The notes under the pieces were generated by a model, which worked only from the letters and a program-made list of their open reading frames with translations, was not told where the DNA came from and ran no database searches. A DNA stretch of 64,000 nucleotides from Vicinamibacterales bacterium (lineage in GTDB: Bacteria; Acidobacteriota; Vicinamibacteria; Vicinamibacterales; UBA8438), in NCBI GenBank assembly GCA_965204675.1, contig OZ242003.1, positions 5,803,996 to 5,867,995 on the forward strand. Reading direction: 5' to 3'. Positions 9,195 to 41,493 of the stretch are shown here, piece after piece (position 1 is the first letter of the stretch; each line of letters begins with the position of its first letter). The position numbers and the translations under genes were made by a program.

Positions 9195-9541
9195 TCAAAA
9201 CTGACCCCTTGGCGACACCGAAAACTGACCCCCGAAGAAACGGCGTATGTAGCTTCATAACGACGATTGCGTGGTCGATGCCGACTGCAACCCCGGGCGG
9301 CGGCTCCGGTCTGCCGCACCCTCCTGAATCCTGGCCCTCCGCTGCGTCCCGGGAGTCGTCGTGGACGGCCGGGACGCCCCGTCCAGGCCGGGCCGCAAGG
9401 CCCATAACTGCCATCTGAGCCGCGGGGCGGGGGGCGTGTCACCCGACAGGGCCGTAGCATCGCGGAGGACGCGCGCAGCGCGTTGACACGCCCCCCGTCC
9501 CGCAGCTACTCCGTTGCGACCTCCCGACGGGCTTGCGTGGT

Positions 9542-9832
9542 CTAGCCATCACGCCCGAAGCCCCTGGGCAGCTCGACAGCCTCCAGCACCGACAGATCCA
9601 GATCGCAGACCTCCTCGAGCAACGCCGCGGTCGCCGACCCGACGAGCGATTCCGGCAACGCGTCCCGCCACGCCCGGTACTGGTCCTGCAGCGCCAGGAG
9701 CGTCTGCACCGCGTCGTCCCACTGCTGCGGCCGCGACCGCCGGTCCGTCGGCCGGCGGTACCGGAGCCGGGACTCGCCGGCCTGCCGCCGCTCCCGGTAA
9801 CGCGCCTGCCGCTCCGCGTTCGTCAACGCCAC
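9542..9832 (-). CDS. Hypothetical 96-aa protein carried inside the IS21-like element (passenger)
   Basis: GTG start with GGAG 7 nt upstream. 'ALTNAERQARYRERRQAG...QWDDAVQTLLALQDQYRAWRDALPESL...LDLSVLEAVELPRGFGRDG' looks like a conserved small helical protein. I cannot assign a family. Confidence 0.5.
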   Translation of the reverse strand: MALTNAERQARYRERRQAGESRLRYRRPTDRRSRPQQWDDAVQTLLALQDQYRAWRDALPESLVGSATAALLEEVCDLDLSVLEAVELPRGFGRDG

Positions 9833-9949
9833 AAGACCGCTCCATCACCGTTACGTAACGGAACAGCGAGAAGGCCGCTCGGCACCCGGATCGGCCCGGC
9901 GTCCGCGACCGGCGGCGCGTTCCGGCGGGCCGGCCCGCCTGACAACCGC

Positions 9950-9979
9950 CACGCCGGCCGAAGGGCGGCGTGGCGCGGC
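9950..9979. repeat. 30-nt GC-rich hairpin element, copy 2 (see 6965-6994)
   Basis: 29/30 identity to copy 1. It lies between the istB stop codon and the passenger ORF. Confidence 0.7.
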
Positions 9980-10034
9980 AGCGGCGCGTGGGCGTGGGCC
10001 TCCCGCGTTGCCCGCCGCGGTGTCGGTCGCGTGA

Positions 10035-10841
10035 TCATGACGACACCTGCGGACGGATCGCCGACGCGGCCGGCTTCGGGGCTGCGATCTTCAGCGCGCC
10101 CGCCCGCCGCTTCTCCCGCAGCCGGTAGCTCTCCCCGGTAATCGTCAGCACGTGGCTGTGGTGCAGCAGCCGGTCGAGGATCGCGGTGGCGACCACGGCG
10201 TCGCCGAACACCTCGCCCCATTCCCCGACCGAGCGGTTCGACGTGATCAGGATGCTCCCGCGCTCGTAGCGCCTCGAGACGAGCTGGAAGAACAGGTGCG
10301 CGGCATGCGCCTCGAAAGGGAGGTATCCCATTTCGTCGCAGATCAATAACTTCGGCTTGGCGTAGAAGGCCAGGCGGTCCTCCAGCCGCCCCTCGCTGTG
10401 CGCCTTGACCAGCGCCGCCATCAGCGCCTGGGCCGTCGTGAACAGGGTCGAGTAGCTCTGCCGGATCGCCTCGCGCCCGAGCGCGACCGCGAGATGCGTC
10501 TTCCCGACCCCCGGCGGGCCGAGCACCAGGAGCGCGTCGCCGTGCGCCACCCACCGCGACGTCGCCAGCTCCCGCACCTGGCGCCGGTCGACGCTCGGCT
10601 GCGCCTTGAAGTCGAAGTCGGCGAGCTCGCGCACCATCGGGAAGCGCGCGATCTTCAGCGCCATCTCGATGCGCCGCTCGTCCTTGCGGGAAACTTCCCG
10701 CTCGACGAACATCGCCAGCGCCTCCCGCAACGTCAGCTTCTTCTCCGCCGCCTCGTCGAGCAGGTTGTCGAGCTGGTCCCGGATCGCGGTCAGCTGCAGC
10801 CGCGTCAACCAGCCGAGAAGCGTCTCATGGTCCACGGCCAT
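10035..10841 (-). CDS. istB: IS21-family helper ATPase IstB
   Basis: 'LVLGPPGVGKTHLAVALG' is a Walker A motif. 'LLICDEMGYLPF' is a Walker B motif. 'RGSILITSNRSVGEW' is also present. The ATG overlaps the istA stop codon (ATGA at 10841). Confidence 0.9.
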   Translation of the reverse strand: MAVDHETLLGWLTRLQLTAIRDQLDNLLDEAAEKKLTLREALAMFVEREVSRKDERRIEMALKIARFPMVRELADFDFKAQPSVDRRQVRELATSRWVAHGDALLVLGPPGVGKTHLAVALGREAIRQSYSTLFTTAQALMAALVKAHSEGRLEDRLAFYAKPKLLICDEMGYLPFEAHAAHLFFQLVSRRYERGSILITSNRSVGEWGEVFGDAVVATAILDRLLHHSHVLTITGESYRLREKRRAGALKIAAPKPAASAIRPQVSS

Positions 10842-12118
10842 CAGAAACGCCCCCCGGCGACGGCCGCGTACTCGTCGAGCGGACGCAGCAGCTCCGGCTT
10901 CGGCCGGACCGCCGCGGTCTCGGCCGGACGCGGGCCGCCGACGACGCCGACCAGGTGCGCCCGGTCGGTGACCCGAGCGTGGCGTCCCTCGTGCTCGGCG
11001 TGCTCGGCGACAACCCTCGGGCCGTGGTGAACGCGCACCCGGCCGCCGCTGACCAACACCCGCACCCGCTCGCCGATCAGCCGCCACGGTACCGAGTAGG
11101 CGTTGGTGTCGACCACCACCGCGCAGTCGGCATGGACCGTCCGGCTCAGATCACGCAACTGGCCGAACGGCGGCCGGCCCCCGCAGGGGCGAAGGCGCTC
11201 CGCTTCCCGGGCAAAGCGCTCGAGAGGGACTTCGCCGGTGGTGCCGTGGCGTCGCCGGTCGGCAATCTCCCGCTGCCACCACCCCAGATGCGCGTCCATC
11301 CCCGCCCAGCTCTCGAAGCGATGTCCGGCGATGGCGCTTGCTTTGACGTAGCCGACTCCGCGCTCGTCCTTCCCCTTCGTCCGGGCCCGGTACGGCGCAC
11401 ACGCGCGCGGACGGAACCCCCAGTGGGCCGCGAACGCCAGGAACCGGTGGTTGAACTCGACCTCCCGAGTCGACATGTCGTGCTCGACCACCAGCGGCCG
11501 CGGGTTGTCGAGCAGCACCTCCCTCGTCACGCCGCCGAAGTGATGGAACGCGCCCTCCAGGCCGCGGAACCACGACGACTGCCGCTCGTGTCTGAACGTC
11601 GCCACGTGGCAGCGCCGCGAGTAGCCCAGCGTCGCCACGAACAGGAACACGCGCACCCGCTCCCCGGCAATCGGCACCTGCCGCTGGCCGAAGTCAACCT
11701 GCAGCTGACGCCCGGGCGGAGTCTCGAACCGCACCGTCGCCTTCGCCTCGGCCGTCAGCAGCCGCCGGAACGGCGCCACCGCCCGCTCGACCGTGCGCAG
11801 GCTCACGTCGATCCCCTGCTCCCGCACCAGGTCCTGGCGCACCACCTCGGCATTGCCGCCGTGCTGGAAGAAGCGCTCCTTCAGCCACGTCTCCTGATCC
11901 TCGAGCTTGCCGCCGCCGGGCCGTCGGCTGTACGTCATCCAGCCGTCGGCCGCGACGTAGCGTCTCACCGTGTTCTTGCTGCACCCGAACTCCCGGGCGA
12001 TGCGCCTCAGCCCCCAACCGAGCGCCCGCAGGTGCAGCATCGCCTCCACCTCGTCTGACTTCCTCATCTGTGCCCGTGGCCTCCCTGCCCACGGGCCGAC
12101 ATCCTCGCATCCCTTCAT
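10841..12118 (-). CDS. istA: IS21-family transposase IstA
   Basis: The N-terminal HTH is 'LGWGLRRIAREFGCSKNTVRRYV'. The DDE core region is 'LQVDFGQ...VFLFVATLGYSRR'. ATG at 12118 has GGGAGGAG upstream. Confidence 0.9.
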   Translation of the reverse strand: MKGCEDVGPWAGRPRAQMRKSDEVEAMLHLRALGWGLRRIAREFGCSKNTVRRYVAADGWMTYSRRPGGGKLEDQETWLKERFFQHGGNAEVVRQDLVREQGIDVSLRTVERAVAPFRRLLTAEAKATVRFETPPGRQLQVDFGQRQVPIAGERVRVFLFVATLGYSRRCHVATFRHERQSSWFRGLEGAFHHFGGVTREVLLDNPRPLVVEHDMSTREVEFNHRFLAFAAHWGFRPRACAPYRARTKGKDERGVGYVKASAIAGHRFESWAGMDAHLGWWQREIADRRRHGTTGEVPLERFAREAERLRPCGGRPPFGQLRDLSRTVHADCAVVVDTNAYSVPWRLIGERVRVLVSGGRVRVHHGPRVVAEHAEHEGRHARVTDRAHLVGVVGGPRPAETAAVRPKPELLRPLDEYAAVAGGRF

Positions 12119-12180
12119 CTGCTGACTCCTCCCTCGGACTGGGGGGTCAGTTTTCAGTGTCGCTGGGGGGTCAGTTTTCC

Positions 12181-12210
12181 ATACCCTATGCAGAGCTCTG
12201 CATAGGGTAT
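12181..12210. repeat. Perfect 30-bp palindrome ATACCCTATGCAGAG|CTCTGCATAGGGTAT exactly at the IS21/RIT junction
   Basis: Read directly. It is built from the same CTATGC(A/G)GAG motif that recurs in both RIT ends. Confidence 0.8.
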
Positions 12211-12359
12211 GCTATGCGGAGTTCCGGACTATGCGGAGTCGGTTGAGGGCTTGCTCTCAAGTACCTGTCAAAACGAGGGTTACGTGAGCTGACCGGTTGG
12301 GGGTACTCCGCATAGTTGGGATGCTCTGTCCGGCCTGATTGGCCGGAAAGGAGCATTCC

Positions 12360-13283
12360 ATGACCGTTCACGGCTCGTGGACCGTCGACCGCCTCGTCGA
12401 CGCGTACACGCACCACCAACGACGTACGCGCGGTTTGCGCCCTCAGACGTTACGCTACCGCGCTTGGTTCGCCCGGACGCTCGTCCGGGCCGCTCTTGGC
12501 GCGGACCCGATCGACCCCAGCCGCCTGACGCCGGCCGCCGTGGTGGTGTTCATCACGTCGTTGCGGCACCGGTTCTCCCCCGCGTCGATGCAGACCGCGC
12601 GGTCATCGTTGCGGTCGTTCTTCCGGTTCCTGCGCGTCGAGGGATTCTGCAACGACGCACTCGAAGCGGCTCTCCCGACCGTTGCCCATTGGCGGCTTGC
12701 GACGCTCCCTCGTTCCCTGACCGAGCAGCAGCTCGAGCAAGTGCTCGCGTCGTTCGACCCGTCCACCCCGTACGGACAACGCGACCAGGCAATCGTGCAG
12801 TGCCTGGCGACCTTGGGGCTGCGGCCCGGCGAGGTGGCCGGCCTTTGTCTGGACGACATCGACTGGCGCGGCGGCACCCTGCAGATACGCACCCGAAAGA
12901 ACCGTCGAGGCGCCGTGCTGCCACTGCCCCGCGTGGTGGGACAGGCGCTGGTCGGCTATCTGAGCGGGGAGCGTCCGGCGACCGACGAACGCCGGGTGTT
13001 CGTCGAGCACCTGGGAGATCGTCGCGGCAAGCCGCTCTCGAGCCCTGCCGTCTCGCGTGTCGCGACACGCGCGGTTCGCCGGGCAGGAGTCGACGCGCCG
13101 CACGCCGGCGCCAACGTCTTCCGGCACACGGTAGCCAGCCGCATGGTGCGAGAGGGGGCCAGCCTCAAGGAGGTCGCTGACGTGCTCGGCCATCGCAGCC
13201 TCGACACCACGACGGTCTACGCCAAGCTCGACCTGCCGCGGTTGCGTGAGGTCGCGCTTCCCTGGCCGGAGGTGCTCCGATGA
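12360..13283 (+). CDS. Tyrosine recombinase, RIT subunit A
   Basis: XerC/D-like: 'GLRPGEVAGLCLDDIDW', 'HTVASRMV', 'LGHRSLDTTTVYAK'. RBS AAAGGAG precedes the ATG at 12360. Confidence 0.85.
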   Translation: MTVHGSWTVDRLVDAYTHHQRRTRGLRPQTLRYRAWFARTLVRAALGADPIDPSRLTPAAVVVFITSLRHRFSPASMQTARSSLRSFFRFLRVEGFCNDALEAALPTVAHWRLATLPRSLTEQQLEQVLASFDPSTPYGQRDQAIVQCLATLGLRPGEVAGLCLDDIDWRGGTLQIRTRKNRRGAVLPLPRVVGQALVGYLSGERPATDERRVFVEHLGDRRGKPLSSPAVSRVATRAVRRAGVDAPHAGANVFRHTVASRMVREGASLKEVADVLGHRSLDTTTVYAKLDLPRLREVALPWPEVLR

Positions 13284-14236
13284 CACCTCCAAGCTTCCAT
13301 CACCTGGTCGACGAGTACCTCACCGCGCGCCGCGGACTGGGTTTCGGCCTCGAAACGGATGAGTGGTTCCTGCGGGACTTCGCCAGCCATGCAGAGCGGA
13401 TCGGACACAGCGGGCCCGTGACAATCGAGCTCGCAGTCCAGTGGGCACTATCCTCACGCTCGACCAATCCGGCGCAGGCTGCACGTCGACTGACGATCGT
13501 GCGGCAGTTCACCCGGTACCGCGCACTCGTCGATCCGGCCACCGAAGTGCCGCCGGTCGGGCTCCTGGGACGCGACTCCAGGCGCCGCTCGACGCCCCAC
13601 ATCTACACCGAGGCGGAGGTCGCCGCGCTCCTGCAGCAGGCACGCTGCTTGCTGCCCCGAGGCGGGTTGCGACCCGCCACCTATGTCGCGTTCTTCGCCC
13701 TGCTGGCGTCGACCGGCCTGCGGCTGTCCGAGGCCCGCCGTCTGACGACCGACGACGCCGACCTCGTCAACGGCATCCTGACCATCAGCGAGACCAAGTT
13801 CCGCAAGTCCCGACTCGTCCCGCTCCATCCGACTACGACCCGGGCACTGCGTCGCTACGCCGACCGCCGTGACGCGTGTCTTGCTGCACCCCGGTCCGCG
13901 TACTTCTTCCGCACCGAGCACTCACCCCGGCTCACGCGCGCCGTGGTGGAGGCGACGTTCCGCGGGATCAGGCGGTGTCTCGACTGGACTGCGGAAGGGC
14001 GTGCGCGACAACCGCGCATCCACGACCTGCGCCACACCTTCGTCGTTCGCCGGCTGCTGCGCTGGCACCAGGAAGGTGCAGATGTAGATCGCAAAGTCCT
14101 GGCTCTCGCAACCTACCTCGGCCACACCGGGGTCGCCCACACCTACTGGTACTGCACCGCCGTTCCCGAGTTGCTCGCCAGCACCGGGCAGCGTTTCGAA
14201 CGCTTCGCCCACCGAGCGTCGGAGCGCCCGTCATGA
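13280..14236 (+). CDS. Tyrosine recombinase, RIT subunit B
   Basis: 'GLRLSEARRLTTDDADL', 'HDLRHTFV', 'LGHTGVAHTYWY'. The start overlaps the upstream stop codon. Confidence 0.85.
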   Translation: MTPPSFHHLVDEYLTARRGLGFGLETDEWFLRDFASHAERIGHSGPVTIELAVQWALSSRSTNPAQAARRLTIVRQFTRYRALVDPATEVPPVGLLGRDSRRRSTPHIYTEAEVAALLQQARCLLPRGGLRPATYVAFFALLASTGLRLSEARRLTTDDADLVNGILTISETKFRKSRLVPLHPTTTRALRRYADRRDACLAAPRSAYFFRTEHSPRLTRAVVEATFRGIRRCLDWTAEGRARQPRIHDLRHTFVVRRLLRWHQEGADVDRKVLALATYLGHTGVAHTYWYCTAVPELLASTGQRFERFAHRASERPS

Positions 14237-15234
14237 CCTCCGTCGAGCGGGCGTTCCCCGCACTCCTGCAAGAGTTCTTCCACCGGCGCCTCATCGCGCA
14301 ACGGGGCGCCAGCACGCACACAATCGCCAGCTACCGCGACACCTTCACGTTGTTCCTCGGGTACGCCGCAGAGCGCACCGGACGCACCCCCTCGGCGCTG
14401 ACCCTCTCGGATCTCGACGCGCCCGTGGTCCTCGGCTTCCTCGACCATCTCGAAACCGAACGCGGCAATTCTGCGCGCACCCGCAACCTCCGGCTCACCG
14501 CCATACGGTCCTTCATGCGCTACGCCTCGCTGCGCGAGCCATCCCTGCTGCCCGTCGCGCAACGCGTCCTCGCGATTCCCGTCAAGCGCTTCGACCGGTC
14601 CGTCCTCGGCTACCTGTCCCGCGACGAGATCACCGCGATCATCGACGCACCCGACCGGTCCACCTGGAGCGGACAGCGCGACGCCGTCCTCTTCGCCGTG
14701 CTCTACAACACCGGCGCCCGGGTCTCCGAGATCACCCGTCTGCACGTTGCCGACGTGCTTCTCGACCGAGCGTCCTCGCTGCTTCTGCACGGCAAGGGAC
14801 GCAAGGAGCGGGTCATCCCGCTCTGGAAGAGCACCGCAGCGCAACTGCGGAGGTGGCTTCCCCGAATCAATGGAAACCCCGACGCCCCCGTGTTTCCCAA
14901 TCGCGCGGGCAAGCCCCTGTCGCGCTCCGGGGTCGAACATCAACTGCGCGGCGCCTGCCGAAAGGCCTCGGAGCGTCACCCATCGCTCACGACGCGGCGC
15001 ATCTCGCCCCACACACTGCGCCACACGACCGCGATGCATCTGCTTCAGTCCGGAGTCGACATCACCGTCATCGCCCTCTGGCTCGGCCATGAGCACACCG
15101 CCACCACCCACCAGTACGTCGAAGCCGACCTCGCCATGAAGGAGGCGGCGCTCCGGTGCGTCGACGATCCCGCACCCCAACCGCTCCGCTTCACGGCCGG
15201 CGATCGGCTCCTCGACTTCCTGGAAGCCCTCTGA
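14233..15234 (+). CDS. Tyrosine recombinase, RIT subunit C
   Basis: 'TIASYRDTF', 'GARVSEITRLHVADV', 'HTLRHTTAMHLL', 'LGHEHTATTHQYVEA'. The start overlaps the upstream stop codon (ATGA at 14233). Confidence 0.85.
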   Translation: MTSVERAFPALLQEFFHRRLIAQRGASTHTIASYRDTFTLFLGYAAERTGRTPSALTLSDLDAPVVLGFLDHLETERGNSARTRNLRLTAIRSFMRYASLREPSLLPVAQRVLAIPVKRFDRSVLGYLSRDEITAIIDAPDRSTWSGQRDAVLFAVLYNTGARVSEITRLHVADVLLDRASSLLLHGKGRKERVIPLWKSTAAQLRRWLPRINGNPDAPVFPNRAGKPLSRSGVEHQLRGACRKASERHPSLTTRRISPHTLRHTTAMHLLQSGVDITVIALWLGHEHTATTHQYVEADLAMKEAALRCVDDPAPQPLRFTAGDRLLDFLEAL

Positions 15235-15539
15235 CTATGCGGAGTACCGCTCCACGCGATCGGCTCCGTCCACGCGGTCCCCCGGGCCAACTCTGCATAG
15301 TCCGGAACTCCGCATAGCATGTCGCCTGACATGACGGTGACGGAACCCAACCGTAGTACCTCGCGAATCCCCCTCAGCAGCCTCCGTGACGGCATCGCCT
15401 CGCCCTCCTCTCGGAAAGCGATGCGTACCCGCAGTCACGCTACCGACGAGAGTTCACAACCCCCGGAGCCGCCGTTCCACTTCATCCGGAATCGATGTTC
15501 CACTTCGTCCCAAGTACGCATCAAACCGTCCGGTGGTGG

Positions 15540-15944
15540 TCACTGCACCGTCTCTCCGTCCTCTCCGTCCTCTCGATCTGCTTCGTCGGCAAGCGCCTCG
15601 ACGATATCCGCGTACTGCACCAGCGTGGCGCGCACTACCGAGTGAACCGCATTCCGGAACGCCGCCGACGGAGCCCACGCTCGTACCGCCGCCGGATCGT
15701 CCTCGTTCGGCATCTCCGCGAGTGCCGCCGCCGCCAGCCGCTCCGCGGGTGTGGCGACCCCTCGCCGCACACGCTCCGTGATTACCGCGCGCGCTGCCCC
15801 CATCACCGTACCGAACCCAGATTCGCCGAAGTCCTCAGGGTCCAACATCCCGCCACCCCCATGTCCACCTTCGCGTCCATCGAAACCAGCAGCAAGCACA
15901 GTGCGTCTTGGCATCGCTCCCTCTTCCGTCCGCCATCGCCGCAT
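15540..15944 (-). CDS. Hypothetical small acidic protein downstream of the RT gene (same strand)
   Basis: ORF with alternative starts at 15914 (MPRR) and 15848 (MLDPEDF). Helical, Ala-rich, with an acidic tail. No family recognised. Confidence 0.4.
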   Translation of the reverse strand: MRRWRTEEGAMPRRTVLAAGFDGREGGHGGGGMLDPEDFGESGFGTVMGAARAVITERVRRGVATPAERLAAAALAEMPNEDDPAAVRAWAPSAAFRNAVHSVVRATLVQYADIVEALADEADREDGEDGETVQ

Positions 15945-16275
15945 CTCCCGCGCCTCACCGCAAGCCTACTGGCCAGACATCCCCTGCCGCCAGGGGTCCT
16001 CCGTCAGCCGCGGCTACCCGCCACCTTGGGCGCCCACCCCAACCGGATCCCTACCCCCTATCCGCAGCACCACGCCGAGATCCACGGTCCTTGGATGCCC
16101 ACGACGGCCACTTGTCACCGCCAGCAACATCCCCCCAACGTGCGCCCGTCCTCTCGTCGACCGCTGAGCGAGTGCCCCCGGCCGCTCCTAGCTCCGAGCC
16201 GATCGCCCACCGTCAGAGTCCGACACGCTGAACAAGTTCCCACAGAACACCCCTTGTGTCCCCAGGAGACCGCCC

Positions 16276-19200
16276 TCACCCGTCGCGCCGGAATCCCGGA
16301 GGTGGCGCCTTAAACCGCGTGGCCGCCAAGCTCTCGCCACCCCAGTGCCCCGCCGCCTGCGCGACCGCTCTGGCCACACCCCCCCTCTGGGCCTCCAGCA
16401 GTTCCCTGACTGGCAACCGGACGTCCGCTGTCAATACCAATCCTCTTCCCCGCAGCCTCGCCAACTCGCGCCCATGGGTACGCCGCGGCGTCCACAAAAA
16501 CGACCCACCGTACCGTCCGTGATTAACTGACGCGACGTTCACATAGTTCTCGTACGCTCGCACCCAGGTTAGCGAATCGAATAGCTCCACGTCCTTGTTG
16601 AACGCCACCATCAGCAGGTGTAGCAACTCGCCTCGTAGCGCCCTCCACGGCGCCGCGTCAATCAGATCCGCGCAGATCGCCACGCTGAAGTCCCCCCACC
16701 TCGGGTGCACGAATCGATACCAGCGTCGGCCCCGCAGCATGCGCCACCGCGTCTGCGACGCCCCCGCCGACAGCGCCAGCGCCAAACCGTCCTCCATGTG
16801 CGCCGCCACCGGCTTTTGAATGCGAAACCAGCGCACAGTCGGCGGACCACGGTCCTCTCCAACCGGCACAATCAACTCCACCTCGTTCACGAAAAACCTC
16901 CGCCTCGCAGTGAATATCCTCGGGGGGCGGAACGCAGGCCTCAACGCCCGCCAGTAAAGCCCCGCAACCGCCGCTTTGCCTTCACTCCGAACCAAATCCC
17001 GGAGGCTCCCCACCTCCTGTTGCGGAATTGCCAGTTCCGGAAGCACCACCACACCCGGACCCGAATCCCCAACGCCCTGCGTCGGCGCAAGAAAGGCGTT
17101 GCATACCTCCTCTATCATTTCGTTCGCCGTAGTAGTCAAAACCCGCGGAAACTGATCCACAACCTCCCGCCTAGCCGGCCACGCCGCCACCTGCCCGACC
17201 CGCACCACCAGCTCATTAGCAATTCCAGCACCGCCAACCCCCAATTCTGGCGGCAGCTCGGGCCCGCCCAAATCACCCGGTGGCCGAATCGTCCTCACAA
17301 TTTCCCAATCTCGACCCACAGGCAAACCGACATCAATGCGCTCGGGCCGGAAGTCCTCAGTCGAAATAACGTCGCGCGACCACCCGGCCAGCGACTCCAC
17401 CAGCCGCCTTCCCCATTCGGTCACATCCGACTCTGGCGCCGCGCTCCAGCGCAGCGCCTCTTCAATCGCCTCCCATGCGTCAACAGGCAAGTGTATCCGC
17501 GCCCGCCATGACCACCGATCTGCGAATGGCGTACCCCTGACACCCGTCCGGGCCAAACCGTCTAGAATCCGCTCACCACCATCCAGTACCGTCAGCAGGA
17601 GAAGAACATCGCAGTACAGCACGTAGCTATCCACGTGCACTGCGCGCCCACTCGCGGAGGCAAACGGTAGATAAAACGCCTCATGCGGCAGCACTTCCCA
17701 TGCCATCGCCCTTTCTATCTGTAGCGGGTGCTCGGCATGTGCCGTTTCCTCCTCTGGAAAAAACTGATCGCGGCGACCGGCCGCCAGGGCCCCTTCCGTA
17801 CCATCGATTAACCAGTTCAGCGGCCCCTGACTTGGGACCCACCCCCCGGGCATATCCGCCGCCCGGACGACCCTGAACAACGCAGCCCCTACACGGCTCG
17901 GCAAACCAACAGCCGGCATCTCCCACGGGGCCATCGGCCAGTCGTTCAGCGCGGTCCCCACCGGCGTGCCCCACAAGAGCCTGTGTACCGTCACTACACC
18001 CGCCGGCCTCGGGTCGTGGCCCACGATGAGACGTCGCGCGCGCGCGTAGTCGCGCAGGAGAAACGCATCCCGCCCAAGCGCCGGGTCTGTATCCCCGCCT
18101 ATCGGAGGAAGCGCGCGACGTGCGAGCGCCGGCCCCACCCATCCGAAGCAGCCGAGGGCCAACCCGGCCGCCACCGCGCCCCGGGCATCGCTTTCGGCTC
18201 GCGCTATACGTGGCCGGCCTGACGTCGGGAACAGCACACCGCCCAACTCTTGATTCCAATGACCCAGTTGCACGTTCGCCAGCGCCCAATAGTCCAGCCT
18301 TCTATTGCGCCTCGATCCCGTTCGACGCAACCTTCCGAATCTGGCCAGGATCTGCGTCGCCTTCGGCATACCCTCAAGTAGCGCGGTCGCCGGTACCATG
18401 AGTATCGCCTCGGGGCCGGCAGTGCGCCGCCATGCATCCGCGAGGTCGGCTGTCGAGTGCATCGCCAAGATCGCTCCGACGAACTCATCAAGTTCCCATG
18501 GCCATGCCTCCATATTCGTGCCGCTTTGCGACGGATACAGCACATCCACCCATTGATCGATTCGGCCCAAAGATGTCGCTACCTGCGCGTGGCCCAGGTC
18601 AGCCACGGCTCTCGTAGTCCACAGAACAGGTGGAGGTATCCAGGCATCCCGCTCCTCGTGTGCCATTCGTGCGGCATGCCTTTCCAAGTCGCGTATCGCT
18701 TGCGCCAGCGCGTGCCAAAACGCCGCTCGGAGAAACGACAGATAGAGTGCGCTCCAACGCTCAGTCCGTTCGTTGGCGTGGCCGTCATCAGCGTCCACCT
18801 CCGGCCACGCGTTCAGCCACGCCGCGGAATCTGTATGGTCAGTTACGCATGCGATCCGACGGAGCTGATTGCCCAGCCACTCTGACGCCTCTTGCGAACT
18901 GTGCTTCGCCTCGCCGAGCACGCGCCGCGCAGCAGCACGAACTACGGCCCGCCAGATCGTGAATTTCCAGGGTGTTCGGTCCAATACGAAGCTGACTGTG
19001 TCGCGAATCCGGCGCAGCTCCCGGTGCTCTTCGCCCACATCGAGGGACTTCGGCAGCCAGGCCCGAACAAGCCGGTTGACAGAAAACGCGCGACGCGTGT
19101 CGGGTCGCACTTGTTCGTCTGCGATGTCGAAGCGCGCCAGTTCGTGGAGTCGCGCCAAGTGGTCCCGTGCGCCATCGCCGAACCGCTGGCGCAGAGTGTC

Positions 19201-20661
19201 TGTCCCTATATCGCTCAGGCGTTCCACCAAGCCCGTGACGAACGGACCGACGTCTCCTCGTTGGATCGCCGTGCGCACCAACGACTCGCGATGGGACACG
19301 AACTCCTTGCGGGTCAACTTTGCCAGCCACCAGTTCAATATCGACTCAGGTGCGCGCTCGCTAGTAGGAGACGGCGGCAACGGCTGTTTGCATGTCTGGT
19401 CCACGCACTCGATCCAACCGTTCTCCACGAGGTAGATGCGAATCACTTCCTGCACCGCATCCGGCCTGATTTTCTTGAAGTTTATGCAGATATTGGAACC
19501 CCTGTTGGGAGTCGCAAGCGAAGCCACCTCGGCTCCCGACAGTGCTCCGTGAACGGTCTCGACGAGAGACCAAAGGCCATCCGGCGATCGGGACATCACG
19601 TACATGTCGTCGGCGAACCTGACGATCGCTCCACGTTTGTCCTCTGTGTTTCGTTCCAGGTAGTTCTGGATTATTCGATCCGGTTCCAAGAAGACGACAT
19701 TAAGCAATATCCCGGAGATAGCGAGCCCGGTAGGTATCCCATCGTGCGCGGATACCTGTGGGAGTGGGTGGCCCCGTGGCGGTCCCCAAGACTGGGGCGG
19801 GATTCCAGCGGGATCCAGGGTGATCTCACCCAGGGCTGTCGTCAGCCGGCGCCCAATGTCCGCTCGAACACCGGGGAGGGCAAGCGCTTCGAGTACCGTC
19901 TGCGGGCAGCCGTCAAACAGCGAACCAACGTCTGCCGGGCGCCGCAACGCCTGTTCCATCGCCATGGCCAGCCGATTGAGCCGTACGGATGGATACGCCA
20001 GTTCGACATCCAGGGCGGCCCAGAACGCGCGCGGCGCGTCGGGTGTACCGCGCCACCAATCCTCGCGCGTCCACGGCGGCAGCTCTGACTCCTCGTAGTC
20101 CGCGGGTAGTTGTACGCGGCCGGAATCATCTGTCGCTGGGAGGGTCGCGTCCGTCATGCGGGCGACGGTCCAATGCGCCACGCGCCGAAATAATCCGTGG
20201 GAGCGAGCGTATGAAAGGAAGATCTTGTCCGTGAGCATCGGATATCGACGGTGCCGCCATCGTGGCGGTTCTGCCCGACGATCCCAGGCGATTGGCCGGT
20301 ACCACCGATTCCCGAATGCGAAATTGGTAACCTGCACATCGAGAATCGGTCCCAGCGCGACCATGTGCGCCATGAACGCCACTTGGTCGCGTACGGTCGG
20401 CATCACGTAGTGCCTCAGCCGGGCGCCCTTTTTCGGGTAGGGTACCTGACGCCATTGCTCCGGCGACCAGGTCGCGGCCCGGAGCTCCTCTGCGAGGTCG
20501 CGAAGCATCCCTTCAGGGTACAGCCGCCAGCGGGATAGTTCCGGCTGCGGCGCCAAGTCGCCCTTTCGGTACCAGGAATCCACCCGCATCCAGGCACCCT
20601 GCAGGATCACCGGATTGGCGAGCACATCCGCCGCCTGCCGTGAATCGTGTTCGGAGTTCAT
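16276..20661 (-). CDS. Giant reverse transcriptase / helical linker / nitrilase-superfamily (C-N hydrolase) fusion protein; DRT type 1 (UG36)-like defence RT candidate
   Basis: RT motifs: 'PYPKKGARLRHYVMPTVRDQVA', 'ALDVELAYPSV', 'GIPTGLAISGILLNVVF', 'RFADDMYVMS' (FADD at 19606-19617). Nitrilase E-K-C candidates: 'VVLPELAIP', 'FRIQKPV', 'VAICADL' (Cys codon at 16672-16674). The maximal ORF starts at a TTG (20724). ATG at 20661 has AGAGG 11 nt upstream. Confidence 0.85.
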   Translation of the reverse strand: MNSEHDSRQAADVLANPVILQGAWMRVDSWYRKGDLAPQPELSRWRLYPEGMLRDLAEELRAATWSPEQWRQVPYPKKGARLRHYVMPTVRDQVAFMAHMVALGPILDVQVTNFAFGNRWYRPIAWDRRAEPPRWRHRRYPMLTDKIFLSYARSHGLFRRVAHWTVARMTDATLPATDDSGRVQLPADYEESELPPWTREDWWRGTPDAPRAFWAALDVELAYPSVRLNRLAMAMEQALRRPADVGSLFDGCPQTVLEALALPGVRADIGRRLTTALGEITLDPAGIPPQSWGPPRGHPLPQVSAHDGIPTGLAISGILLNVVFLEPDRIIQNYLERNTEDKRGAIVRFADDMYVMSRSPDGLWSLVETVHGALSGAEVASLATPNRGSNICINFKKIRPDAVQEVIRIYLVENGWIECVDQTCKQPLPPSPTSERAPESILNWWLAKLTRKEFVSHRESLVRTAIQRGDVGPFVTGLVERLSDIGTDTLRQRFGDGARDHLARLHELARFDIADEQVRPDTRRAFSVNRLVRAWLPKSLDVGEEHRELRRIRDTVSFVLDRTPWKFTIWRAVVRAAARRVLGEAKHSSQEASEWLGNQLRRIACVTDHTDSAAWLNAWPEVDADDGHANERTERWSALYLSFLRAAFWHALAQAIRDLERHAARMAHEERDAWIPPPVLWTTRAVADLGHAQVATSLGRIDQWVDVLYPSQSGTNMEAWPWELDEFVGAILAMHSTADLADAWRRTAGPEAILMVPATALLEGMPKATQILARFGRLRRTGSRRNRRLDYWALANVQLGHWNQELGGVLFPTSGRPRIARAESDARGAVAAGLALGCFGWVGPALARRALPPIGGDTDPALGRDAFLLRDYARARRLIVGHDPRPAGVVTVHRLLWGTPVGTALNDWPMAPWEMPAVGLPSRVGAALFRVVRAADMPGGWVPSQGPLNWLIDGTEGALAAGRRDQFFPEEETAHAEHPLQIERAMAWEVLPHEAFYLPFASASGRAVHVDSYVLYCDVLLLLTVLDGGERILDGLARTGVRGTPFADRWSWRARIHLPVDAWEAIEEALRWSAAPESDVTEWGRRLVESLAGWSRDVISTEDFRPERIDVGLPVGRDWEIVRTIRPPGDLGGPELPPELGVGGAGIANELVVRVGQVAAWPARREVVDQFPRVLTTTANEMIEEVCNAFLAPTQGVGDSGPGVVVLPELAIPQQEVGSLRDLVRSEGKAAVAGLYWRALRPAFRPPRIFTARRRFFVNEVELIVPVGEDRGPPTVRWFRIQKPVAAHMEDGLALALSAGASQTRWRMLRGRRWYRFVHPRWGDFSVAICADLIDAAPWRALRGELLHLLMVAFNKDVELFDSLTWVRAYENYVNVASVNHGRYGGSFLWTPRRTHGRELARLRGRGLVLTADVRLPVRELLEAQRGGVARAVAQAAGHWGGESLAATRFKAPPPGFRRDG

Positions 20662-20782
20662 GTATCGGTCGACCTCTGTCGCTCCGTCAGCACTGCCGGC
20701 GTGCGTCAACCAGCCGCCCGCCAAAGTGGGTCAGAACACCTCGAGATCGACAGCGGGAAGTGCGCCGAAGAGGCTCCGCGGC

Positions 20783-21560
20783 TCTAGGCAGATGGTACTC
20801 CATGGAGATGCGCAGCCCAATGGGCCATTAGCCAGCGGCGACGCTCGAAGGGGTCGACCGCGCGTACGCAGCCTCGACCTTGTCCTTGACCCGATGCGCG
20901 AGCGCGGCCTCGACGACCCCCGCGGGTGGTTCGTCTCCTCGGACGCCCAGTCCCGAACGCTCGACCGGAAGCCGTGCCGCGCGGCCTGGATGCACTGCTC
21001 TTTGAGCAGCTTCAACAAGGTCAGGTCGGAGAGAGGTTGGCGCGGGGGCTCGGGAACACGAGGTCGCTCCAGTTGCGCAACGTCGGTGCCGTCTCGAGGA
21101 GGCTCCCGGCCGGCGGCGACAGCGACAGCCGGTGCTCGCGGTTCGCCTTCATGCGCTCAGTTTGGGACGGTCTAGACATCGGCCTGGAGACCGATCTTCT
21201 CCCACCGTGCCAGTCGCACCTCGGCGGAGCGCGCCGCCGTCAGCACCGGGAACTCGAACGCCAGCTTGCCCGCAGCGGTGGCCCGCGATGCCCGCGCGGT
21301 GGCCTTGGCCGACGCGACCTCGGCATGAGGCAGGGTCCGCATGTGCCGGACGACATCTCCTTGGCGCCCCAGGGTCGCGGCGACCCGGTCGCACGGGTTG
21401 TCGGCCCGGTACTCCGTGGCCACCGCCCACTGCGTCACGGTGTCGATCCGCTGCGCACCCGGCGGGCGGTCTCCGGCTTGTCGTGCCAGATGGGGGCGAG
21501 CACGCCGAGCACGTCGGAACTGCTGACCTCCGACACTGGGCGTTCGCCGAACCGGGGGAG
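20783..21560 (-). pseudogene. Decayed P4-like tyrosine integrase: N-terminal ~120 codons missing and at least five frameshifts
   Basis: Integrase-like pieces appear in different frames. They include 'FGERPVSEVSSSDVLGVLAPIWHDKPETARRV', 'QRIDTVTQWAVATEYRADNPCD...LAFEFPVLTAARSAEVRLARWEKI', 'RMKANREHRLSLS' and 'HGFRSSVRDWASEETNHPRG'. Further pieces are 'VVEAALAHRVKDKVEAAYARS' and 'DPFERRRWLMAHWAAHL'. Confidence 0.8.
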
Positions 21561-21564
21561 CCTG

Positions 21565-22722
21565 TTAACGGGTAGGCACAGAGCCGGTCACGAACGCGGC
21601 CCATCGGTCCATCAGCCCGCGCCGCTGGTCGAACAGATCGCTGCGCGCGTAACTGCGCTCCACAGCTCCGCCGACCACGTGGGCAAGGGCCATCTCCGCC
21701 ACGTCCCTCGTCGCCCCGGACCGCTCCGCCGCCCACGTGCGGAAACTCGAGCGGAAGCCGTGAACGTCCGCATCCGTCCCCGTCGCTTTCCGCAGCGCGT
21801 AGATCAAGGTGGTGCCGTTGAGCCGCCGCCCGCCCACGCCAGGGAAGATCAGCGAGTCGGCCGCGCCGCCAGAATGCGCCTTCATGCCTTCCAGCACGCC
21901 CACAGCCGCATCCGACAACGGCACCCGATGTTCCGCCCCGGCCTTCATCCGCGACGCCGGTACGCGCCACTCCCGCGCCGCAAGGTCGACCTCGCCCCAC
22001 GTCGCCCCGCGAGCCTCGCCGGACCGTACCGCCGTCAGCGCCGTGAAGCGAATCACCGCCTTGACGGCCGGACCGGACCCGCACGCCTCGACCGCCGCCA
22101 GCGCCGCGGGAACGTCCGCGTACGGCAACGCCCGCCGATGCGCTCGGGTCTTCGGGGTCTTCGGCAATGCCGCGTCGATCACTTCGCCCGCCGCGTTCAC
22201 GTCGACGTGCCCGAGAGCTTGCGCCGCCGCGAGCACGCCCCGGACCCAACCGCGCAAGAGCTTGCCGGTCGCGGGCTTGTCGCGGTAGACCGGCCCGAGC
22301 ACCGAGAGCACGGCCGCCCGGTCGATCTGGTCGACGGGTCGCCCCATCAGACGCGCCGCGTACCGCGCCAGGGTCCGCCGCCGCGTCTCTCGGGTACTGC
22401 CGCACCACTGGCCCCCCTGATCGACCTTGGCGGACAGGTCCGCGAACGTCGGCACGGTCGACGCACGCCCGGACGGGTCGCCGCCGCGCTTCGCCGTCAG
22501 GCGGTTGTCGTGCGCCCGCTCCCGAGCCTCGGACAGCGTGACGGCCGGGTAGGTCCCGATGCTGATGTCGCGCCGCTTCCCCTGGACGTGGAGCCGTTGA
22601 ACCCACCGCTTGTTGACCCGGCCCGTCCGGCCCTTGGCCACGACCAGGTACACCGTGTCGCCCGCCTGATACCGGCCCGGCTTCAGTAGCGTCTCGGCCC
22701 GCTTGGCTGTCAGTCTTTCCAT
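21565..22722 (-). CDS. int: Site-specific tyrosine integrase (P4-like, DUF4102-type N-terminus), intact
   Basis: 'LTAKRAETLLKPGRYQAGDTVYLVV', 'LTAVRSGEARGATWGEVDL', 'HRVPLS', 'HGFRSSFRTWAAE', 'ALAHVVGGAVERSYARSDLFDQRRGLMDRW'. ATG at 22722 has GGGAGG 9 nt upstream. Confidence 0.9.
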   Translation of the reverse strand: MERLTAKRAETLLKPGRYQAGDTVYLVVAKGRTGRVNKRWVQRLHVQGKRRDISIGTYPAVTLSEARERAHDNRLTAKRGGDPSGRASTVPTFADLSAKVDQGGQWCGSTRETRRRTLARYAARLMGRPVDQIDRAAVLSVLGPVYRDKPATGKLLRGWVRGVLAAAQALGHVDVNAAGEVIDAALPKTPKTRAHRRALPYADVPAALAAVEACGSGPAVKAVIRFTALTAVRSGEARGATWGEVDLAAREWRVPASRMKAGAEHRVPLSDAAVGVLEGMKAHSGGAADSLIFPGVGGRRLNGTTLIYALRKATGTDADVHGFRSSFRTWAAERSGATRDVAEMALAHVVGGAVERSYARSDLFDQRRGLMDRWAAFVTGSVPTR

Positions 22723-22851
22723 GGAACCAGCCTCCCTTGGCCGAAATACTACACCCACGGTACGCCCACAGTCAAGACCCGGATTCGGGTGGATCGTCCC
22801 GGACCGGTCTGGACCCGGGAGAGGGTAAATTTCCCTTATTCCGCTTTGAAA

Positions 22852-22875
22852 TCCGCATGATTGGACAGATGCGGA
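22852..22875 (-). terminator. Hairpin TCCGCAT-N10-ATGCGGA downstream of the dehydrogenase gene; a TTTCAAAG tail follows on the minus strand
   Basis: Read directly. The U-tract is weak. Confidence 0.35.
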
Positions 22876-22897
22876 CCGGCCCGGACCAGGGCTAGCG

Positions 22898-25072
22898 TTA
22901 AGGCAGCGCGAACACGTAGAGCGCGTTGCCGGTCTGCGGGTGGTGGATGTCCGGCGCCAGCGCCCGCGGGGCCGCCCGCGGGCTGCCGCCGCCGAGGCCG
23001 GTCGACACCGCGACGTACTGCCGGCCGTCGACCGCGAACGAGATCGGGAAGCCCTGCACCGACGTGCCGAGCCGGGCCCGCCACAGCTCCTCGCCGGTCC
23101 GCACGTCGAACGCCCGGAACCGCCGGTCGAGGTCGCCGGCGAAGGCGATGTCCCCGGCCGTCGACAGGACGCCGGTCAGGAACGGGGCCCGCTGCTCGAC
23201 GCTCCAGACCTCCTCCAGGGTCTCGGCGTCGAACGCCGCGAGCTTGCCGAGCCGGCCCTCGGTGTCGGGCATCTCGAAGAAGGGACGCGCGCTCATCCCC
23301 ACGCCGCCCGAGCCGGGCTCGAGGGCGACCTCGCGGGCCGACAGCTCCATGCAGGTCTGGGAGAGCGGGAGGATGAGGAGCCCCGAATCGGGGTGGTAGC
23401 TCATGGGGTGCCAGTTCTTGCCGCCGGCGGTGCTGGGGCACGCCGGGACGAGCTGCTCGAACTGCGCGTCGACGATGTCCTGGCGGTAGGTGACGGCGCC
23501 GGTCTCGGGGTCGATGTGGTCGAAGACGTTCTGGAAGACGGTCTCCTTGTGGCCGAGGAACTCGCCGGTCTCGCGGTCCAGCTTCCAGAGGATGCCGTGC
23601 TTGCCGGCGCTGAAGACGACGCGACGGTCCTCCAGGTCGACGAGCACCCGCTCGAAGACCTCATCGAGATCGAGGCTCTCGCCGGGGACGTGCTGGAAGT
23701 GCCAGGCGAGGTCGCCGTCCCCCGGCCGGAGGGCGACGGTCGAGCTGGTGTAGAGCGCCGGGTCGTGCACCGTCATGCCCCGGCTGACCGCGACCCACGG
23801 CTTGGCCTGCGCGACGCCGAAGTAGACGAGGTCGAGCGCGGGGTCATAGCTCCCCGTGATCCACGTCTCGCCGCCCCCGCGCAGGTAGTCGGGCAGGTTC
23901 GCCCAGGTGTTGCCGCCGGGCTCGTCCGCGCGGGCCACGGTGTTGAACCGCCAGCGCCGCTCGCCGGTCGCGGCGTCGTAGCCGCTGATGAAGCAACCCT
24001 CGCGGGTGAACTGCCCGCAGCCGCCGAGCCCCTGCACGATCGTGCCGCCGGCGATGACCGGCCCGCTGGTGTTGCGGAAGCCCTCGGCGTCGTCGGCGAT
24101 GCGGGTCGTCCAGACCTCGGCGCCGGTGCGCGCGTCGAGCGCGAGCAGCCGTGCGTCGGCGGTGGCCAGGAAGAGCTTGTCCTCGTAGATGGCGAGATTG
24201 CGGCTCGAGCTGGCGAGCTGGCCCGCCTCGACGCCCACCTCGTGCTCCCAGATCAGGTCGCCGGTGCGGGCGTCGAGCGCCTGCACCACCGGGCCGAAGC
24301 CGGCGAAGTAGAGCACGCCGTCGTGCGCGATCGGCGAGGGCGCGTTCCTTCCGCCCTCGTTCATGGCCCACATCCACTGCAGCTCGAGCTCCCCGACGTT
24401 GTCGCGGGTGATCGCGTCGAGGGGGCTGTGGCTCCAGGCCTGGTAGTTCCGCCGTACCATCAGCCAGTCGCCCGGATCGGGATCGCGCAACATCTCGTCG
24501 GTGACCGGCGTGTAGCTCTCCACCTCGCCGGCGACCGTCACGCCGCCCGGCACGGCGGCCGCCGCGGTGCGCGTGTCGGGCCGCCGCGCCCGGCCCTGGG
24601 CCGCCGCGGTTATCGCCGGCGCGGGGGTCGTCTCGCCTGTCGCCACGTCGCCGATGGGAACGGCGGTGGCCGCCGTCAGGGCCTGGTCCCCGGCCGGCGC
24701 GCCGTTGGCCTCGAGCAGGTACGCGACGATGTCGAGATAGGTCTCGTCCCCGAGGCGGCCCGGCCGGTCGGGGGGCATCGTGGTCCGGATGCGCTCGACG
24801 AGTTCCTGAGGCGTGAGGTCTCCCCAGAAGCTCAGGAAGTTGGGGCCGGCCAGCGGCGGGGACTCGAAGTTGCCCCGCAGGTCGGTGCGGTGACAGATGG
24901 CGCAGCTCCGCGTGTAGACGGCGCGGCCGTTCTCGGCCTGACTCGCGGTGTGGATGCCGTCCCGAGCGGGCTGCCCGGCGGCGAGTGCGGCCCCGTCGAC
25001 GAGACTGACGACAACGACCAGCGCCGCCGCGGTTGCCGCCGGACGCCCGAGGAAACAGCTTGCAGAGATCAT
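22898..25072 (-). CDS. PQQ-dependent (quinoprotein) dehydrogenase beta-propeller with an N-terminal c-type cytochrome domain and a signal peptide
   Basis: Signal-like '[24 protein letters not shown]'. Haem motif 'CAICH'. Propeller signatures '[21 protein letters not shown]' and '[11 protein letters not shown]'. The start was set at the ATG at 25072. Confidence 0.8.
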
Positions 25073-32710: not shown

Positions 32711-37603
<4,893 letters not shown>

Positions 37604-41143: not shown

Positions 41144-41493
41144 GAGGCTGTATGGTCCCGCTCAGTTCGTCCGTGGGTCCGGGCGCCGTGGGCCGTCGGC
41201 GACCGCCGTCGGCGCCACTGGACAGCGCCAAGGGGAATTATGCATACTCGGGGCCAAAAGTGGAGAGTGGCGCGTACTCGGGACGAGATCGGACGCCGGG
41301 CCACCGAGGGACGGGGAGCCGACCCAAGAAATCCACGTAATTGGATCACGTATATCAGATAATTGGATGAGCGGCATCGGTCGCTCCCGGACGAAGCAGC
41401 TCGCCGCTCCCGGCGGGATGTCGCCGTTCGGGGACCGCTTCATCGCTCCCGAACGGGCGAGCCGCCGCTCCACGGCCAAAGGAGGCCCCTTCA

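Follow-up and report, generated by a model that had tools for sequence, protein, structure and literature searches.

Gene structure and reading frame

The 64,000-nt stretch analyzed here (referred to as the window; contig OZ242003.1 of a Vicinamibacterales bacterium, positions 5,803,996 to 5,867,995) carries on its minus strand a gene that encodes a reverse transcriptase (RT), a family-specific middle region and a nitrilase-superfamily (C-N hydrolase) effector domain in one polypeptide. An initial annotation, made from the DNA letters and a list of open reading frames (ORFs), described the gene as a giant RT/helical region/nitrilase fusion of the defense-associated UG/Abi kind, wedged between a recombinase-in-trio (RIT) element and a decayed integrase. 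Both parts of this description are supported: three recombinase ORFs lie on one side and a frameshifted P4-type integrase on the other, and the domain reading is upheld by the comparisons given below. Coordinates of all features are collected in Table 1.

The minus strand from 16276 to 20724 forms one open frame, which the ORF translation counts as 1482 aa from a TTG, in agreement with the uninterrupted ORF of 1461–1482 aa first described. The frame is open beyond the ATG at 20659-20661, upstream as far as the TTG at 20724. This ATG is most likely the true start, giving 1461 aa, because homologues align from residue 1 and a GAGG lies ~12 nt upstream. Residue numbers were counted from the ATG; those of the initial annotation are 21 higher. 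The motif strings it had quoted (four from the RT, three from the nitrilase) were all found in the translation, and its nucleotide coordinates for FADD and for the Glu, Lys and Cys residues matched when recomputed from the ATG.

The gene has a G+C content of 0.636 and a G+C content at third codon positions (GC3) of 0.71, versus 0.68–0.77 and 0.77–0.98, respectively, for neighboring genes. The lower G+C, first judged by eye, is thus real and indicates horizontal acquisition. Conservation was scored over 52 homologues of 43–84% identity. All 150 family-invariant positions are kept in the window copy, which therefore looks functional.

Table 1. Coordinates of the RT-nitrilase gene, its parts and the neighboring elements in the window
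Feature	Position (nt)	Strand	Remarks
RT/family-specific region/nitrilase coding sequence	16276..20661	(-)	1461 aa from ATG 20659-20661; stop 16276-16278
RT core and post-palm segment, residues 10-533	19063..20634	(-)	homologous to UG6 RTs; hhalign, Foldseek, PADLOC RT_UG6
Motif A catalytic Asp, D218, in FWAALDVELAYPSV	20008..20010	(-)	invariant in 52 sequences; DRT1 motif A alignment very weak, -2.4 bits
Motif C, F349-A350-D351-D352 (FADD)	19606..19617	(-)	aligns with DRT1 RYVDD (D324/D325)
Conserved segment, residues 472-533 (GPFVTxLVERLSxIG...DTRRxFxxNRL)	19063..19248	(-)	candidate mobile priming loop
T476	19234-19236	(-)	candidate priming residue
S483	19213-19215	(-)	candidate priming residue
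Family-specific helical region 1, residues 534-885	18007..19062	(-)	mostly helical, confidently modeled; end of first protein in split relatives
Family-specific alpha/beta region 2, residues 886-1172	17146..18006	(-)	pLDDT ~90; N-terminal half of second protein in split relatives
Nitrilase-superfamily (C-N hydrolase) effector domain, residues 1173-1461	16279..17145	(-)	PADLOC RTasNitrilase E 3.4e-33; Foldseek
E1209 (E1230 in initial annotation)	17035-17037	(-)	invariant
K1283 (K1304 in initial annotation)	16813-16815	(-)	invariant
C1330 (C1351 in initial annotation)	16672-16674	(-)	invariant
D1332	16666-16668	(-)	invariant
C-terminal tail motif, F1450-KAPPPG-F1457	16291..16314	(-)	candidate active-site lid or domain-swap element
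P4-type tyrosine integrase	20830..22758	(-)	Pfam Arm-DNA-bind_3, Phage_int_M, Phage_integrase
RIT element	12209..15320	(+)	three overlapping tyrosine-recombinase ORFs (Phage_integrase)
IS21-family element	9187-12178		IstA 10841-12118, IstB 10035-11087; adjoins RIT element
MobA/MobL relaxase	3435-5978		847-aa ORF

Reverse transcriptase domain

The two Pfam profiles by which the initial annotation proposed to recognize the domains gave a mixed result: RVT_1 (PF00078) scored 19.8 bits on the window protein, below its gathering score of 29.6, and CN_hydrolase gave no match. Both domains are backed by PADLOC models, fold search, conservation and alignment to DRT1 and DRT11, and several homologues have precomputed PF00078 matches. 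The catalytic residues of the RT had been correctly chosen. D218, F349 and D351 are invariant in the 52 homologues, and at least 90% of them have A350 and D352.

The NCBIfam model TIGR04416 (group II RT) reached 49 bits against a cut-off of 300, over the fingers only. Neither the Pfam nor the NCBIfam library is informative here. An AlphaFold2 model of residues 1-885 (predicted local distance difference test score [pLDDT] 80, predicted template modeling score [pTM] 0.88) was searched with Foldseek. Group II intron RTs came out on top (target TM 0.62–0.66), followed by DRT9, DRT4, AbiA, UG15, DRT6 and AbiK; the DRT1 structure 9YFD was not among the Foldseek matches listed for this model (fold library entries to April 2026). 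The fingers region also resembles group II RTs, and the best specific relative is UG6 by both hhalign and PADLOC. As initially noted, no group II intron, retron or diversity-generating retroelement (DGR) features were found near the gene.

The post-palm segment of residues 472-533 is common to the window family and UG6 (hhalign). Residues 475-540, most of which fall within it, have pLDDT <50 in the AlphaFold2 model although many are invariant. In a 53-sequence alignment that included 25%-identical members, S483 was present in 49/49 members of the family, T476 in 96% of them, and both in 4/4 UG6 proteins. The segment is a candidate mobile priming loop, by analogy with DRT1 loop 382-478, which holds S402; the DRT1 S402 region gave no alignment to the window protein there.

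A post-palm insert at residues 414-428 (nt ~19378-19422) contains two cysteines in the pattern GWxxCxxCxQ. C419 occurs in all of the 52 full-length homologues and C424 in at least 90%, and the insert has no UG6 equivalent in the alignment. It could be a small element that binds metal or serves a structural role.

Nitrilase domain

E1209, K1283, C1330 and D1332 are invariant in the 52 homologues. By hhalign they pair with E772, K833, C876 and E878 of DRT11, of which K833/C876/E878 were named as the triad by the authors of that work (PMC13436386), and C1330 aligns with C1116 of DRT1. The Glu, Lys and Cys singled out in the initial annotation thus appear, from the alignments, to occupy the catalytic positions. 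In an AlphaFold2 model of residues 884-1461 (pLDDT 87, pTM 0.89), Foldseek recognized nitrilase-superfamily amidases (6ypa, 3hkx, 5jqn and others) with E 4e-9 and target TM 0.55–0.61, in keeping with the alpha-beta-beta-alpha sandwich of that superfamily.

The protein ends in a conserved tail, FKAPPPGF, in which K1451, P1454 and P1455 are invariant and P1453 and G1456 are conserved in at least 90% of homologues. The motif recurs as FKPVPDGF in DRT11 and as FKSKPPGY in a UG6-associated nitrilase. In DRT1, the C-terminal tail (K1219) is domain-swapped, closes the neighboring nitrilase site and is essential (PMC13275509). By analogy, the tail of the window protein may serve as an active-site lid or as a domain-swap element.

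Middle region

For the ~640 aa between the two domains no homologue was detected. Region 1 (residues 534-885) and region 2 (residues 886-1172) gave no Pfam match and, with region-specific profiles, no significant PDB sequence match (best E 0.13 and 0.66, respectively). Foldseek searches of both half-models gave only RT and nitrilase matches and nothing for residues 534-1172, and a viral structure library returned a single match, to a C-N hydrolase. Region 2 is absent from the alignments to the 302-aa UG6-associated nitrilase and to DRT11.

Family placement

Class 3 of the UG/Abi RTs is defined by proteins of >1000 aa whose RT is either fused to a C-N hydrolase or phosphohydrolase or lies next to one, an extension separating the two (PMC9226505). 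The window protein fits this architecture, with 1461 aa, an RT fold, a nitrilase fold and ~640 aa between. In the same classification, RT-nitrilase fusions comprise UG1, UG5-large and UG29, while in UG5-small and UG6 the nitrilase has a gene of its own (Mestre et al. 2022, PMC9226505).

The initial annotation assigned the gene to "DRT1 (UG36)", a label that does not hold. DRT type 1 is UG1, and UG36 is an unclassified, methylase-associated group (clusters 169/2186) that is without a nitrilase (PMC9226505). The PADLOC model RT_UG36 (PDLC03775, 557 aa) did not match the window protein at E≤1, and no methylase adjoins the gene. A true DRT type 1 protein shares the order RT/helical region/C-terminal nitrilase in one polypeptide, and both the Drt1a model and the 9YFD structure were matched. 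The Drt1a match (E 8e-14, 48 bits) is, however, confined to profile positions 964-1145 of 1176, which is the nitrilase part, and the RT fits RT_UG6 better. The family profile aligned colinearly with DRT1 (9YFD) for 52.7 bits in total, spread over four short blocks (motif A, very weakly; GLPxGLA...R[FY][AV]DD; PELA/SELA; and AIC[AY]D). Through these blocks the catalytic Asp-Asp, Glu and Cys align, and both proteins have C-x-D after the catalytic Cys. Both also have a conserved C-terminal tail and a disordered post-palm segment, and the window protein, like DRT1, would be a single-gene system. Against this, similarity is limited to the motif blocks, the RT is of a different group, and the window protein is ~230 aa longer (1461 aa versus 1200–1300 aa for UG1; PMC9226505), with another middle region and an unalignable S402 context. 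Membership of DRT type 1 or of UG36 was rejected by these profile tests and is highly improbable.

The other PADLOC matches to the window protein divided in the same way. RTasNitrilase (Table 1) and RT_UG5-nitrilase (E 7.8e-21, confined to profile positions 680-891 of 907, the nitrilase part) fell on the C-terminal part, and RT_UG6 (E 6.6e-14) was the best UG model for the RT part. RT_UG6 was also the best UG model for 8/8 diverse family members, at 42–80 bits over profile positions ~2-349 of 925 only. With bona fide UG6, hhalign gave probability 99.95 and E 9.4e-38 over 440 columns at 25% identity, covering residues 10-533 and nothing beyond. With the 302-aa nitrilase that follows a UG6 RT, it covered residues 1173-1461 only (E 4.4e-22), including the tail motif, and with DRT11 the nitrilase alone was aligned. 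From the UG6, nitrilase and middle-region comparisons, the protein is a three-part mosaic consisting of a UG6-like RT core (residues 10-533), a family-specific region (534-1172) and a nitrilase of the UG1/UG5/UG6-associated radiation (1173-1461).

UG6 (class 3; Kojima & Kanehisa family E) has a DnaG-type primase partner (cluster 192), a separate nitrilase (cluster 285) and a kinase-like C-terminal domain, and its role in defense was called inconclusive by Mestre et al. (PMC9226505). One alternative is that the window family is a divergent UG6 subgroup whose separately encoded nitrilase has become fused and which works as UG6 does. Among known groups, UG6 is closest in the RT core (E 9e-38), the window family shares with it the homologous post-palm segment, the nitrilase type and its FKxPPG[FY] tail, and the split forms described below repeat the RT-then-nitrilase gene order of UG6. 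Both also occur embedded in modification-based defense operons, DISARM-like in one UG6 example and BREX (bacteriophage exclusion) in the window family. However, bona fide UG6 proteins (1062–1087 aa) score 700–780 bits over the full length of RT_UG6, about ten times the scores of the window family, which cover the RT core only. Homology ends at residue 533, where the kinase-like C-terminal domain of UG6 is replaced by unrelated sequence of ~640 aa. A UG6 locus has the order primase-RT-small nitrilase, whereas neither the 35 loci examined for it nor the flanks of the window gene have a conserved primase neighbor of the DnaG type. Finally, the nitrilase is fused in the window copy, and the effector of the split forms is ~600 aa with an extra ~290-aa domain, versus 302–315 aa in UG6. 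We consider this alternative unlikely.

Two further groups were compared. UG5-large (DRT11; S. meliloti pSymA) has a homologous nitrilase with equivalent E/K/C residues and an FKxxPxGF tail. UG5 likewise contains fused (large) and split (small) forms within one group, and its RT and nitrilase alone are needed for defense (PMC13436386). Unlike the window protein, UG5-large is ~1000 aa with a small DUF4136 connector in place of the 640-aa region and has YVDD where the window protein has FADD; the RT_UG5-nitrilase model matches only the nitrilase part. UG29 (DnaG primase-RT-nitrilase, ~2500 aa) is also a class 3 RT with a fused C-N hydrolase, but the window protein lacks the primase domain and gave no match to RT_UG29 in PADLOC, and the UG29 nitrilase is a separate lineage.

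Members of the window family are named only "hypothetical protein" in public databases. DRT10 is UG17 and DRT11 is UG5-large, so neither designates this lineage, and no newer DRT or UG name covering it was found in the literature. The family is an unclassified, sizeable RT-nitrilase lineage, probably of class 3, found only in metagenome-assembled genomes (MAGs), in which a UG6-like RT is joined to a nitrilase through an unprecedented 640-aa region.

Distribution and split forms

A search of 1.84 billion representative proteins with a profile built from the N-terminal 885 residues returned 904 relatives, 151 of them with E<1e-30. Bona fide UG6 proteins appeared only at the bottom of the top 150 matches (E ~1e-32). 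The family comprises at least ~150 clusters at 50% identity. When one genome per GTDB species was scanned, 42 loci were found, all from MAGs, with identities from 94% down to 25%. These were distributed over Acidobacteriota, Gammaproteobacteria, Myxococcota, Gemmatimonadota, Spirochaetia, Planctomycetota, Chloroflexota, Elusimicrobia and Bacillota. The family was not found in 72,556 plasmids, 50,697 phage records or 2.9 million viral contigs. Since it is restricted to MAGs and absent from the plasmid, phage and viral-contig sets, catalogues based on isolates (the PADLOC models and the 42 UG/Abi groups) miss sizeable clades.

Single ORFs make up about half of the intact copies, and in the rest the frame is split at ~residue 885. 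In the split form, gene 1 (~880 aa) encodes the RT and helical region 1 and gene 2 (~600 aa) encodes region 2 and the nitrilase, with the two genes overlapping or abutting; the proteins of locus L002, for example, are 890 aa and 602 aa. The fusion point at ~885 therefore marks a natural boundary between polymerase and effector. A frame split in two, which the initial annotation had counted against the fusion, needs to be qualified accordingly, as translationally coupled gene pairs are a natural state of this family.

Many of the 42 MAGs come from one long-read assembly series (OY/OZ/CBD accessions), and carrier taxa include Ca. Versatilivorator, Azophilus, Azotimanducaceae and Marinacidobacterium. 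The assembly series and the candidate taxa hint at a shared habitat. A Bryobacterales copy (L030:10001-15612) is apparently interrupted by a ~1.2-kb insertion.

Association with BREX operons

Of the 42 species-level loci, 11 are embedded in BREX operons, where the module occupies one of two positions. In BREX type 3 (six loci: L015, L018, L021, L023, L031 and L034), the order is pglXI-[RT-Nit]-pglZ, with the module flanked by a PF01555-type methyltransferase and a BREX-3 PglZ (849 bits versus a cut-off of 250). In BREX type 1 (five loci: L011, L020, L022, L029 and L032), the order is brxC-[RT-Nit]-pglX, with the module flanked by BrxC (668 bits versus a cut-off of 400) and a BREX-1-like PglX. 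L002:5147-15510 is likewise given as a locus with the module embedded in BREX. The RT-nitrilase genes are co-oriented and tightly packed with their BREX neighbors, and the embedded copies are nearly all of the split, two-gene form. Replacement of BrxHII by the module in BREX type 3 was considered and rejected. L021 keeps an SNF2 (BrxHII-like) helicase after the RT-nitrilase gene, and the module is therefore an insertion rather than a replacement. Other loci adjoin genes for TIR, NERD-kinase and TrlF/Ppl-like ATPase proteins. Clustering of neighbors revealed no conserved partner gene.

No description of a BREX-embedded RT or nitrilase was found in the literature, and a comprehensive 2026 survey of BREX (PMC12839542) does not mention reverse transcriptases or nitrilases. 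The positions in BREX operons, the co-orientation and tight packing, and the predominance of the split form among embedded copies would fit a non-autonomous BREX accessory, such as a back-up effector or sensor. Against that, no BREX genes lie near the window copy or near ~70% of the loci, DRT1 and DRT11 are single-gene systems, and BREX loci are a known hot spot in which independent defense genes become embedded (PMC12839542). A dependence on BREX is accordingly rather improbable.

The same operons bear on the nature of the template. In BREX-embedded loci, the neighboring genes lie 0–77 nt upstream and 12–181 nt downstream of the RT-nitrilase, and because they abut it there is no room for a dedicated non-coding RNA (ncRNA) gene. 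An RNA-templated RT, of the class 2 DRT or retron-like type with an ncRNA or mRNA as template and cDNA as the functional product, might be expected from the resemblance of the fingers region to group II intron and retron-type RTs. In addition, the window copy has ~950 bp of unassigned sequence downstream (15320-16276) and ~170 bp upstream. However, no Rfam family was found within 9000-24000 of the window, nor were template or variable repeats (TR/VR) of the kind relevant to DGRs. The BREX-embedded loci leave no conserved flanking non-coding region, and all three class 3 enzymes tested were template-independent, with no ncRNA detected by RNA-seq for UG5-large (PMC13436386). An RNA template is improbable on this evidence.

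In L047:1-13264 and L048, a bona fide UG6 RT and its 302-aa nitrilase lie in a DISARM-like operon together with genes for an SNF2 helicase, an Eco57I-type methylase and a DEAD-helicase/MZB protein. No DnaG primase was found at this UG6 locus (L047/L048). An SLFN_AlbA_2/HATPase_c_4 gene adjoins that UG6, and the same domain pair is found in BREX-3 loci of the window family (L002:3276-5144).

Interpretation and proposed mechanism

Three class 3 enzymes have been characterized biochemically. Purified DRT1, UG5-small and UG5-large each produce protein-linked DNA with no template; in DRT1 the DNA is covalent and primed on S402, in a loop (382-478) that was unresolved by cryo-electron microscopy, and the adducts drive assembly of tetramers and filaments via the nitrilase domains (PMC13275509). 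The substitutions D324N/D325N and C1116A in DRT1 abolish defense, and RT and nitrilase activities are both needed for abortive infection (PMC13275509). DRT1 and DRT11 each work as a single gene (PMC13275509, PMC13436386). The initial statement that template, cDNA product and nitrilase substrate are unknown is therefore outdated for the template and product, synthesis being template-free (PMC13275509), and still holds for the substrate.

Taken together, the window gene is probably an intact, horizontally acquired, stand-alone anti-phage RT-nitrilase of UG/Abi class 3, from an unnamed lineage in which a UG6-sister RT core is linked through ~640 aa to a nitrilase of the UG1/UG5/UG6-associated type. 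By homology with the characterized enzymes, the RT would use dNTPs without an RNA template and would prime on a hydroxyl side chain of its own. The best candidate would be S483, followed by T476, in the flexible loop of residues 472-533, and the product would be a short covalent single-stranded DNA adduct. The adduct would drive oligomerization through the nitrilase domains and keep the enzyme dormant, with the FKAPPPGF tail serving as the lid. Phage infection would perturb the adduct or the assembly, whereupon the nitrilase could act on an essential amide- or amine-bearing metabolite and bring about abortive infection. The analysis itself establishes the domain identities, the conservation and positional match of the catalytic residues, the relationships to UG6, UG5 and DRT1, the defense context and the lack of space for a dedicated ncRNA. 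Protein priming without a template, the residue that primes, the lid function of the tail and the abortive outcome of infection are all carried over from the homologous systems.

Several points weigh against this interpretation. No experiment exists on any member of the lineage or on UG6. The choice of S483 or T476 draws on conservation and on the failure of AlphaFold to place the segment, and the DRT1 priming serine is, by published account, not shared by other class 3 DRTs (PMC13275509). Similarity to DRT1 as a whole is limited to the four short blocks and 52.7 bits given above, and the ~640-aa family-specific region could confer a different regulation or activity. In the nitrilase, Pfam CN_hydrolase (PF00795) gave no match even at E≤10, the domain being too divergent for the model, and D1332 stands in place of the second Glu of the canonical tetrad, as does the Asp of C-x-D in DRT1. 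No sigma-70 promoter or intrinsic terminator consensus was found flanking the gene, a search that is uninformative for an acidobacterium of 71% G+C. Lastly, in the closest sequenced relative, a Vicinamibacterales MAG chromosome (OY762226.1; L010) ~94% identical in DNA to the window, the orthologue is broken at the position corresponding to window ~18875 by a 1.5-kb insertion sequence (IS) with a DUF772/DDE_Tnp_1 transposase (L010:11785-13284). Selection in the host lineage may therefore be weak.

Until 2026, no UG/Abi class was less well understood than the RT-nitrilase proteins, and the present findings are less surprising after the DRT1 and DRT11 papers of that year. The window lineage stands beside UG1 and UG5 as a third, deeply divergent natural experiment, and one useful for comparative dissection of RT-nitrilase immunity. 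The two catalytic centers, a flexible post-palm loop with a conserved Ser/Thr pair and the FKxPPG[FY] tail have been kept, and everything between the domains has been replaced; the comparison therefore separates the essentials of the mechanism from the lineage-specific parts. The natural split at ~885 shows that RT and effector need not be joined in one chain to work, and the lineage offers a handle on UG6. The strong association with BREX operons is new, as are the natural fused and split forms, and repeated embedding points either to functional coupling or to BREX as a favored landing site.

A more speculative extension, which we put forward as doubtful, is that the family is an unrecognized, MAG-restricted DRT type, a sister of UG6 that exchanged the primase and kinase-like parts for the 640-aa module and was captured at least twice in BREX as a coupled abortive-infection layer, with the adduct sensing phage replication or anti-BREX factors. 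If true, this would make it the first BREX accessory based on an RT, and likewise the first based on a nitrilase.

The mobile island

Of the P4-type integrase upstream of the RT-nitrilase gene, only the first 397 aa (21565-22758) are intact; the C-terminal coding sequence can be followed out of frame to ~20830. No tRNA gene flanking the integrase and no convincing flanking direct repeats were found. The promoter of the RT gene must lie inside the 3′ remnant of the integrase or in the ~170-bp spacer. The initial annotation had placed it of necessity inside the pseudogene; the remnant is a possible site, and so is the spacer. The island contains no other recognized defense genes.

On the other side, the RIT element has terminal inverted repeats of 34 nt (12209-12242 and 15287-15320) with 94% complementarity. 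The sister genome L010 lacks the element at this position, which makes a recent insertion probable. The adjoining IS21-family element has inverted repeats at 9187-9233 and 12142-12178, with a tandemly duplicated GACACnnAAAACTGACCCC motif.

This setting raises the question of whether the island is decaying and the window copy a relic without function. The integrase next to it is frameshifted, IS21 and RIT insertions occur throughout the island, the sister orthologue is disrupted by the IS described above, and the promoter search found no consensus. A 4.4-kb frame has nonetheless stayed uninterrupted in a 64% G+C gene, no family-invariant position has been lost, and the start codon has a plausible context. 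A relic is distinctly improbable, and the copy is better read as an intact, probable defense gene.

The ~950 bp from the RIT element to the 3′ end of the gene (15320-16276) are conserved in the sister genome. The only ORF there (272 aa, 15495-16313, plus strand) overlaps the stop region of the RT-nitrilase gene and has no Pfam match. ARAGORN made a single call, a 100-nt tRNA-Arg(GCG) at 5009-5108 on the minus strand, which is probably spurious, being abnormally long and lying inside the MobA/MobL ORF. Two very large ORFs farther along the window (32711-37603, minus strand, 1630 aa; 37958-41362, plus strand, 1134 aa) have extreme G+C at codon positions 1 and 3.

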